Of a stretch of DNA of 64,000 nt, positions 51,559-55,273 are shown piece by piece. The number at the start of each line of letters is the position of its first letter. Within the stretch, counting starts at the first letter, position 1. The translations under genes and the position numbers were made by a program. The notes beneath the pieces are model-generated. The model did not search any database. It saw only the letters and a list, made by a program, of their open reading frames with translations, and was not told the DNA's origin. Location: positions 32,001-96,000 of IMG/VR virus record IMGVR_UViG_3300036893_000013; one strand, given 5' to 3'. Source of the DNA: a virus.

Positions 51559-51634
51559 TGGCTCGCCCCGCTGGATTCGGACCAGCATCTCCAGAATTAA
51601 CAGTTCTGTGCATTGCCAGTTATGCTAGAGGCAA
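51559..51634 (-). tRNA. tRNA-Asn(GUU)
   Basis: Cloverleaf TTGCCTC/GGGGCGA, D GCAT/ATGC, anticodon arm CAGAA-CTGTTAA-TTCTG, T arm GCTGG-TCCGAAT-CCAGC, G73, encoded CCA. Confidence 0.9.
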
Positions 51635-52274: not shown

Positions 52275-52289
52275 GATAGACCTTTTTAT

Positions 52290-52800
52290 TATGAGATGGG
52301 GCTTTTCAGGCCGGAGAAGGAGGGGTCACACGGTACCCCTCAGTTATGTACATACTCGCCAGCATTGCACTGGCATTGCGAAGACGGGAATTTATGACCG
52401 GCTAACAAAATCCTCCGGCTCACATAAAACTTATAAAACTTATAAAACTTATAAAACTTATAAAACTTATAAAACTTATAAAACTTATAAAACTTAGAAC
52501 ACCGGGCGTTGAGCTTATGCTTGCCCGGTAATCTTAAGTCCGATTTGTACTCCCTCGGAACCGGGGCAGAAGGATTAAAATCCCTCAAATTCTAAACTTT
52601 TTAAACTTTAAACTTTAGCTAGTTTCTCTCACGGGACTAGCGACCCTAGTGAACGGCAGGTAGCGACTGCGCGGAGCCTGTAGTTCTAAAAACTAGCGGT
52701 CACTGGTGCTCTCAGCTTTAAGCTACACCCGTCCACTTAAGGGCGGGAGAAGAGGCGCTAATCTCTTTATCCTTCAGTCGGGTCCGCTATCTTGTGCATC
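52290..52800 (-). ncRNA. Array of structured non-coding RNA domains downstream of tRNA-Pro
   Basis: Four GC-rich multi-stem blocks (about 52290-52423, 52497-52590, 52618-52697, 52694-52789), with AAGUUU-type spacers after the tRNA and between most blocks; no credible ORF. Confidence 0.55.
52424..52495. repeat. Tandem repeat (ATAAAACTT)x8
   Basis: Eight perfect 9-bp units counted directly. Confidence 0.95.
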
Positions 52801-52806
52801 TAAACT

Positions 52807-52895
52807 TGGTCGGGGTAGGAGGACTCGAACCTCCAGTGCTCTTAAGCTCCTGTTTCCAAAACAGGTCGGCTACCATTTACCGATTTACACCCTCG
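52807..52895 (-). tRNA. Atypical tRNA-Pro(UGG) with long variable arm
   Basis: Anticodon arm CCTGT-TTTGGAA-ACAGG, T arm GGAGG-TTCGAGT-CCTCC, C1-G72/A73/CCA; 14-nt variable region and a bulged acceptor stem. Confidence 0.75.
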
Positions 52896-52994
52896 GGGCG
52901 CGACTCCCGTTACGATAATAGCGTTTGCGGGTGGTGCCGGGTTGAACAGATTTTCCATCTAATTACTATTATACTCTCTTTTATCGAAAATTTA

Positions 52995-54444: not shown

Positions 54445-54803
<359 letters not shown>

Positions 54804-54841: not shown

Positions 54842-55273
54842 TTAGTTGTTTCCGTAGTTGTAATAATAAAGGCTTCCACAAGTACTACAGTTGTTTCCGT
54901 AGTTGTAATAATAAAGGCTTCCACAAGTACAGTAGTTTCCAGAACACCAACCGCAAGAGCAGGTAATATTTCCGGAGGAGGTAATATTTCCGGGAATACC
55001 AGAGAAAACACCCGGGAGGATATAAGATTTAGGAACAATGAACTTATAATCTTCCGAAAACTGGTACCCAAACTCCCATCCCGATTTCTTTTCTATGTAT
55101 TTATGTTGGATATAAGTATTCCAGTCGTCGGAAGCTTTTTGTGCTCTAACTAAATCATCATGTTTGTTTTTGCTGAGAACTTGATCCTGTGGGGATAGCT
55201 CTATTACTTTAGCCGTTTGAGCCGGAAGTATTGTACTCACCAGCAAAAATAGTATTTTTATCATTTTTGTCAT
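54842..55273 (-). CDS. Secreted protein with Cys/Tyr-rich repeated tail
   Basis: MIKILFLLVSTILPA|Q; TCGSLYYYNYGNN twice. Confidence 0.65.
   Translation of the reverse strand: MTKMIKILFLLVSTILPAQTAKVIELSPQDQVLSKNKHDDLVRAQKASDDWNTYIQHKYIEKKSGWEFGYQFSEDYKFIVPKSYILPGVFSGIPGNITSSGNITCSCGWCSGNYCTCGSLYYYNYGNNCSTCGSLYYYNYGNN
54844..54930. repeat. 42-bp direct repeat, period 45
   Basis: AGTTGTTTCCGTAGTTGTAATAATAAAGGCTTCCACAAGTAC at 54844 and 54889. Confidence 0.9.

Follow-up and report, generated by a model that had tools for sequence, protein, structure and literature searches.

The locus that we studied raises a simple question, namely, what is encoded in the 720 bases without genes that lie behind a tRNA-Pro gene, on the minus strand, in an uncultured 112-kb phage that appears to come from soil. 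The window that we analysed is a stretch of 64,000 nt (positions 32001-96000 of an IMG/VR virus record that is 112 kb long and has a completeness estimate of 98%), and positions given without a contig handle refer to it. Along the minus strand, the order is an HNH ORF, the gene-free 720 bases, a 200-aa ORF, tRNA-Asn, small ORFs, and then the terminase, portal and capsid genes; there are only three tRNA genes in the entire genome of this phage. The features of the locus are listed here from 5' to 3' on the minus strand, with their homologues in related phage contigs (handles beginning with L):

53873-52995, minus strand: HNH endonuclease ORF (PHROG 59, E 4e-85), abutting the operon on its 5' side
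52968..52973, minus strand: -10 box TATAAT of the predicted operon promoter, about 20 nt past the stop of the HNH ORF
52893..52960, minus strand: predicted transcribed leader with short G+C hairpins, 5' of the tRNA, aligned in the window phage, L002, L003 and L043
52807..52892, minus strand: tRNA-Pro(UGG) with a long variable arm and an encoded CCA (ARAGORN; Rfam tRNA, 29.9 bits)
52802..52807, minus strand: first AAGUUU linker, whose first A is the A of the tRNA-Pro CCA end
52693..52791, minus strand: cassette A, about 99 nt (homologues L003:2528-2622 and L043:2804-2899)
52617..52685, minus strand: cassette B, about 69 nt (homologues L002:358-426 and L043:2905-2972)
52594..52615, minus strand: three consecutive AAGUUU linkers at the junction of B and C, located by string search
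52538..52589, minus strand: cassette C, about 52 nt (homologues L043:3208-3259 and L044:3309-3396)
52501..52529, minus strand: G+C hairpin ACCGGGC/GCCCGGU, a predicted fold present only in the window phage, with no homologue
52424..52496, minus strand: 9-nt linker unit AAGUUUUAU (RNA strand) in eight perfect tandem copies (Tandem Repeats Finder)
52289..52386, minus strand: element D, the conserved leader of the 200-aa gene, found in the window phage, L002, L003 and L043
51672..52274, minus strand: 200-aa ORF inside the RNA operon, without a family in Pfam or PHROG
51559..51634, minus strand: tRNA-Asn(GUU), the last unit of the operon (ARAGORN and Rfam, 52.5 bits)

The TATAAT box is unchanged in all four aligned phages (the window phage, L002, L003 and L043) and is preceded by an extended -10 (TGn) in three of them, the window being the exception; our consensus promoter scan missed the box because its -35 is weak. 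The hairpins of the leader vary between CCCG/CGGG and CCCC/GGGG, as judged by eye rather than by a formal count, and are followed in order by tRNA-Pro, cassettes A, B and C, the expanded linker repeat and element D. Since the box is invariant and no terminator-like site lies between the units (a terminator scan returned no intrinsic terminator there), the arrays look like single operons, and the whole array would be made as one transcript. The tRNA-Pro gene, which is also present in L002 and L003, scores barely above the Rfam cut-off (29.9 versus 29 bits). Its variable arm has 13 nt (GCU-UAAG-AGC), and the window phage alone carries an extra A in the 5' acceptor strand, the L003 copy having a perfect 7-bp acceptor stem. 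The 200-aa protein is 72-85% identical to its counterparts in the relatives; its AlphaFold model has a beta-rich C-terminal half and is poor (pLDDT 50), too poor for a structure search. None of the ORFs neighbouring the array has an RNA-related domain. Upstream of the HNH gene, in or beside small minus-strand ORFs, lie a (GGTGTC) x5 repeat (54718-54749) and a perfect 45-nt tandem duplication (54844-54940).

Using the 200-aa protein as the query, we recovered five IMG/VR contigs and seven metagenome loci; the latter mostly repeat the IMG/VR contigs, with a new array only in L045. Our comparison therefore covers 5-6 related phage contigs, in a family of about six metagenomic contigs. At this locus the relatives have an operon of Pro, Ala, amber-suppressor (CUA) and Trp tRNAs, the 200-aa gene, and Gln and Asn tRNAs, and it is among these genuine tRNA genes that A, B and C occur as separate cassettes at differing positions. 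A follows tRNA-Pro in the window, tRNA-Trp in L003 and a Leu-like tRNA in L043; B follows A in the window and in L043 and comes directly after tRNA-Ala in L002; and C follows B in the window and lies well downstream of tRNA-Trp in L043. Furthermore, B is missing from L003, which does have A, and A is missing from L002, which does have B. The original prediction had read the stretch as discrete non-coding RNA units tied to the tRNA, and this reading is supported, because the units, separated by a recurring linker, reappear as independent cassettes with conserved cores and compensatory changes. The window phage lacks tRNA-Ala, the amber-suppressor, tRNA-Trp and tRNA-Gln, all carried by its sister phages; that it has kept the cassettes and lost these four genes argues that the cassettes are not mere passengers of tRNA genes. 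In our judgement, the locus is a real, selected and strand-specific set of small structured RNA units plus element D, a reading for which the comparative sequence evidence is moderate. Probably it is a phage tRNA operon in which most tRNAs have been lost or replaced and three structured RNA cassettes have been kept, these being released at the linkers, with D as a leader that acts in cis.

A different reading takes A to D together as one long 5' leader, acting in cis on the late or structural operon whose first gene is the 200-aa gene. The units would then not be released, and their folds would serve for mRNA protection, for pausing or antitermination of the polymerase, or for translational control. 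Such a leader would fit the position of D, the best-supported structure of the locus, which, apart from L045 with its intervening HNH ORF, always lies just 5' of the 200-aa gene, as well as the lack of a terminator between array and gene and the terminase, portal and capsid genes that follow on the same strand. However, A, B and C vary in order and in distance to the gene, from which they are separated in the relatives by tRNA genes and in L002 even by small ORFs, and the linker they carry is also that of the tRNAs, whose excision is certain. We consider this reading unlikely.

Several further units were noted in the arrays of the relatives. The amber-suppressor tRNA lies at L003:2318-2392 and L043:2648-2722, scoring 70.5 and 55.5 bits, respectively, in the Rfam tRNA model. 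Directly 5' of cassette A in L043 there is a tRNA-like gene (L043:2724-2792) with the anticodon loop CCUAAAG (UAA with C33), which scores 51 bits in the same model and was missed by default ARAGORN. The unit at L004:3760-3880 (= L043:3260-3380) is tRNA-shaped, with a normal D arm and T arm, the tail CUCA instead of NCCA, and about 55 nt between the two strands of the expected anticodon stem; either an intron-like insertion or a further non-decoding cassette might account for it. The two small ORFs of L002 (440-835), located within the tRNA operon between cassette B and tRNA-Trp, encode signal-peptide-like, Cys/Pro-rich products of about 60 aa. Elsewhere, a blastn search of the stretch against 50,697 GenBank phages gave no match, and exact or degenerate patterns of the cores recovered from IMG/VR only the known sister contigs, plus chance matches in coding DNA. 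A terminase-based search reached more distant phages (49% identity) that have neither tRNAs nor cassettes upstream, and when the genome and 25 loci were searched with a covariance model of B, no additional copy turned up, diverged or otherwise. As none of 185,579 prokaryote genomes contains the A or the B core, the two are unlikely to be captured host RNAs.

The cores of these cassettes are highly conserved. Between phages, identity is 88-96% in the 68-nt core of A and 92-97% in the 60-nt core of B, versus 70-72% nucleotide identity for the neighbouring conserved ORF. Where substitutions do occur, they affect the outer helices, a single hairpin loop of A, or the strands of the B pseudoknot, and those in helices are compensated. 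The A core has stops in all three sense frames, and the relatives share no ORF with the window here. Part of this high identity could stem from recent cassette exchange and not from purifying selection. Covariation is thin for A, B and C, since each is represented by only three distinct sequences. Against shuffled sequences, a comparison that the original prediction had itself proposed, C and D fold moderately better (z = -2.4 and -2.6), but A and B do no better (z from -1.2 to -0.7 for A and from -0.1 to +0.7 for B, three phages each), so that A and B would fail this check and the case for them rests on the comparison with relatives. For the whole 536 nt, z is -3.1 on the minus strand and -4.6 on the plus strand; this statistic says little, since the plus strand scores even better.

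With three tRNA genes only in the window phage, and Ala, amber-suppressor, Trp and Gln tRNAs at the same locus in its sisters, A to C might also be tRNA pseudogenes in decay, or spacer without function, as the tRNA cluster erodes, the more so as A is cloverleaf-like with a 7-nt loop of anticodon form (CUUAAGU), and the GGG-loop-CCC hairpin of B resembles a T arm with one extra base. Decay is difficult to reconcile, however, with cores whose conservation greatly exceeds that of the coding neighbour and, between the window phage and L043, that of tRNA-Pro as well, the tRNA alignment there extending over only 36 nt at 80%. Moreover, the same cassettes coexist with intact tRNAs in the sister phages, A has no significant similarity to the tRNAs of the arrays (z at most 2.3), no cassette is called by ARAGORN or Rfam even under relaxed settings, and A, B and C run straight into the linker and lack the CCA that is encoded by all 11 CCA-ended tRNAs in the four closest arrays. 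Thus, pseudogenes or spacer seem to us quite unlikely. As for individual searches, the tRNA model (RF00005) has no match in 52275-52806 even at E up to 10, and ARAGORN calls none of A to D as a unit by default, with introns or at an 80% threshold, its relaxed runs yielding noise. A tRNA origin of A, suggested by the anticodon-like loop and by AGCUUAA..GAGCAC shared with the variable arm of tRNA-Pro, was rejected, the alignment being no better than that of shuffles.

Cassette A is predicted to be a junction of several helices, in which an outer helix encloses the AGAG/CUCU hairpin, whose 8-nt loop is variable, a G+C hairpin and a short GCU/AGC helix. The G+C hairpin with its 7-nt loop CUUAAGU and the GCU/AGC helix are invariant, and the outer helix forms in all three phages, each time from entirely different sequence. 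Accordingly, the closing helix predicted for A (UAGCGG at 52789-52784 with CCGCUA at 52699-52694) is found on the minus strand and re-formed in the relatives, and the hairpin AGAG-AUUAGCGC-CUCU predicted at 52766-52751 gains support from one compensatory exchange of A-U to C-G. The loop of this hairpin reads AUUAGCGC in the window, AUUUGCGC in L043 and AGUGACGC in L003, and its proposed partner in B is invariant.

Cassette B is predicted to fold into a CAGG/CCUG helix that encloses a GCG/CGC mini-hairpin, followed by an H-type pseudoknot composed of a GGG/CCC helix and a 6-bp pairing of the loop 52641-52636 with the 3' tail 52623-52618. All 16 pairs of this model are 100% paired in the three sequences, two double changes occur in the pseudoknot helix (strands GCUAGU/ACUAGC, GCCAGU/ACUGGC and CCCAGU/ACUGGG), and the duplex of loop and tail has an energy of -8.6 to -11.4 kcal/mol in all three; relative to shuffles, the pairing support from three sequences is weak, 49 of 500 shuffles doing as well. 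The outer helix originally drawn for B (GCUAGUUU at 52697-52690 with AAACUAGC at 52625-52618) does exist in the window, but its counterparts in the relatives are only 77% paired, with five broken cells; in the window it and the closing helix of A are mutually exclusive, because both use bases 52697-52693. The stretch CUAGGGU...GAGAG of B resembles what we take to be the ykkC core; a search of the genome for guanidine-I (RF00442) at E up to 10 gave no match, and B has no consistent position upstream of a regulated gene.

It had also been proposed that the blocks pair through complementary loops into kissing-loop multimers; equally, they could be parts of one large ornate RNA of the ROOL or GOLLD type. 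Both are structured non-coding RNAs that often occur near tRNA genes in phages. In the window, two UCGCUA segments are indeed present in B (52666-52661 and 52643-52638), the A loop UAGCG is complementary to the CGCUA in them, and the invariant hairpin loop of A contains the palindrome CUUAAG. But the second of the two supposed loops is a strand of the intramolecular pseudoknot and specific to the window, and the pairing of the A and B loops shrinks from five pairs in the window to about three in L043 without compensation, because the A loop varies (in L003 as well) while its B partner does not. Since the loops are not conserved, one of them is occupied by the pseudoknot, and each of A and B is found on its own (A in L003, B in L002), multimers are not upheld. 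Furthermore, ROOL and GOLLD are single RNAs of 500-800 nt, whereas the units here have 50-100 nt and occur independently, and neither was detected in the stretch by full Rfam scans, which covered GOLLD, or, for ROOL, by an additional single-family search, in which the only match to the 574-position model (RF03087) scored 7.4 bits and lay elsewhere in the genome. We thus hold multimers and an ornate RNA to be highly improbable.

Cassette C is composed of a 7-bp hairpin, an invariant 17-nt core (CCCCGGYUCCGAGGGAG) and a closing UCGG. The 5' hairpin is retained with other sequence in L044, where a 34-nt hairpin has been inserted between the core and the closing UCGG, which is the site expected if the core and the closing UCGG pair.

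The AAGUUU-type spacers predicted after the tRNA and between the blocks are present, and they are confined to the sense strand: in 726 nt the motif occurs 12 times in sense versus 0.27 expected from composition, and never in antisense. Eight of the 12 copies fall in the perfect tandem repeat (52424-52496; period 9, 8.1 copies, 100% matches), which is unique to the window phage, absent from the relatives, and looks like a slippage expansion of one linker. In L043 the motif occurs four times (0.39 expected), and it is sense-only in all six arrays. It also lies 3' of A and of B in both L043 and the window. In the arrays of the relatives, the CCA-AGUUU junction follows five of the 11 CCA-ended tRNAs, a count that includes the tRNA-Ala of L003, whose CCA lies just outside the gene end given by ARAGORN; close variants (AAUUU, AACUU and AGAUU) follow others of the 11. 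RNase E prefers single-stranded purine-N-cut-(A/U)-U-U, and in E. coli it separates polycistronic tRNA precursors a few bases 3' of CCA. As AAG|UUU fits this preference, we infer that the transcript would be cut within the single-stranded linkers by an enzyme of RNase E-like preference, an assignment that goes back to a consensus of 5-6 nt. The 3' ends would then be trimmed back to the closing helix of A or to the pseudoknot of B, so that A, B and C might accumulate as discrete stable RNAs of 50-100 nt beside the tRNA. The nearly invariant unpaired nucleotides of the cassettes suggest that each may bind a specific partner in trans, most likely a host or phage protein. Because the fixed linker predicts exact RNA ends and the conserved cassettes are short, both this processing model and the pseudoknot of B are directly testable in vitro.

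A bolder proposal, which we regard as rather doubtful, is that in this phage clade the AAGUUU operon serves as a general expression platform for interchangeable trans-acting small RNAs, at least one of which has an undescribed phage-RNA activity. Cassette B, which is nearly invariant and pseudoknotted, may be the best candidate for such an activity; it could be a new self-cleaving or ligand- or protein-binding fold, or else act as a decoy, a role that the original prediction had suggested too, the target being a host enzyme of RNA-targeting defence or of tRNA processing. If the proposal is true, B has been retained even where tRNA genes were lost.

Element D differs from the cassettes in its fixed place before the 200-aa gene; in L002 and L003 it begins about 10 nt past a tRNA CCA. 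It contains the following hairpins:

52375-52357, minus strand: hairpin H1 of element D, with the loop UGCAA
52341-52320, minus strand: G+C hairpin H3 of element D
52312-52298, minus strand: small GGC/GCC hairpin of element D

All 14 pairs of the inner hairpins are kept, seven of them with compensatory changes, which none of 500 shuffles attains, and the two inner hairpins foreseen in the original prediction are thereby supported. The outer helix foreseen for the same element (GCCGGAG at 52419-52413 with CUCCGGC at 52316-52310) is present in the window but has no counterpart in the relatives. Several G.U pairs of D would be A.C on the other strand, indicating that the RNA is that of the minus strand. 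D would act in cis on the downstream mRNA, affecting its stability, translation or read-through. Between the hairpins of D, at 52320-52356 on the minus strand, there is a loop-less perfect palindrome that differs in each phage (L002, L003 and L043 aligned), the sequences being AUGUACAU, GUGAUAUCAC and GUGAUCAC. Loop-less palindromes of this sort are more typical of a DNA-binding site than of an RNA hairpin. That they change between phages and yet stay palindromic, and that homing endonuclease genes (HNH, in the window and L045) lie beside the arrays or inside them, could be taken to mean that the conserved cores are signals at the DNA level, such as homing-endonuclease targets, recombination sites or operators. 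The G.U pairs and the strictly sense-only linker favour instead a strand-specific RNA feature, and the compensatory changes keep pairing and not sequence; DNA signals in place of RNAs are, in our view, extremely improbable.

The original prediction could match the blocks to no recognised family, and the Rfam scan that it had proposed as a check agrees: at the gathering cut-offs and at E up to 10 in the stretch, and at E up to 1 in five relatives, only tRNAs were detected. The family is new to Rfam, yet it belongs to a known and unexplained kind, that of the T4-type small stable RNAs. The T4 record has in one block seven tRNAs (Gln to Ile), segB, tRNA-Arg, rnaD (119 nt) and rnaC (139 nt), the last two, at the end of the tRNA cluster, being annotated as 'small, stable RNA'. 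Stable RNAs are also found in the tRNA region of phage T5. Like RNAC and RNAD of T4 (species 1 and 2, about 100-140 nt), the cassettes are predicted non-tRNA RNAs in a phage tRNA operon beside a homing endonuclease gene, the class being one that context and not sequence defines; they are non-coding, conserved and on the tRNA strand, which is the setting of the T4-type RNAs. No sequence similarity links rnaC or rnaD to the stretch. The T4 RNAs, moreover, have tRNA-like 3' parts (a T-arm-like GGUUCGAAUCC and a CCA end) that A to C lack, and, unlike in T4, the cassettes here outnumber the tRNAs, change position and are framed by a fixed AAGUUU linker. To our knowledge, the small stable RNAs of the T4 and T5 tRNA clusters have been known for some fifty years and are still unexplained, and the present locus offers a clean, compact example of their kind, with one promoter, one tRNA and three short cassettes.

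The closest precedent for a catalytic role is given by theta ribozymes, HDV-like RNAs that abut phage tRNA 3' ends, by which phages use ribozymes in tRNA maturation (Kienbeck et al. 2024, PMC10879173). By analogy, the array could be divided into its units by one or more of the cassettes themselves, and by B above all, acting as self-cleaving ribozymes of a class not yet described. In favour of this are the small size of B, its pseudoknot and the near-absence of change outside its helices, its place within a transcript that needs processing, and the twister-P5 match elsewhere in the same phage (61650-61717). As in the theta systems, small pseudoknotted RNAs lie just 3' of phage tRNAs, and the relatives carry amber-suppressor tRNAs (PMC10879173). 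On the other hand, only 4.5% of the theta-linked tRNAs encode CCA and no linker intervenes (PMC10879173), whereas here CCA is encoded, a linker follows and there is no HDV-like fold. The theta phages are from the gut, while these contigs appear, from their names only, to be from soil or peat metagenomes. The spacer between tRNA and cassette is 13-20 nt, outside the +/-5 nt around the tRNA 3' end in which theta cleavage sites fall. Neither HDV-like, pistol nor any other Rfam ribozyme matches the cassettes, the first two having been searched for in the genome at E up to 10, and the order of helices in B, with a loop pairing to a 3' tail 12 nt away, precludes a nested HDV fold. We therefore think it very unlikely that the cassettes are such ribozymes. 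Among the candidates tried, the HDV-like models (RF00094 and RF02682) gave no hit anywhere in the genome up to E 10, and the nested double pseudoknot of HDV (P1, P1.1, P2, P3 and P4, with a catalytic C in J4/2) has no room in B, where only 12 nt lie between the strands that should embrace P3, P1 and P4. Pistol (RF02679) had a sole match elsewhere in the genome (7.3 bits, E 9.9), and in B the pseudoknot strand is followed by the linker only, where pistol has P2/P3 and its cleavage site. The type-P5 twister match (RF02684) is on the plus strand and scores 43.7 bits against a cut-off of 37.6 (E 8.5e-6); it lies between genes, in a region of small early ORFs on the plus strand, and is closely followed on its 3' side by a short ORF with its own RBS.
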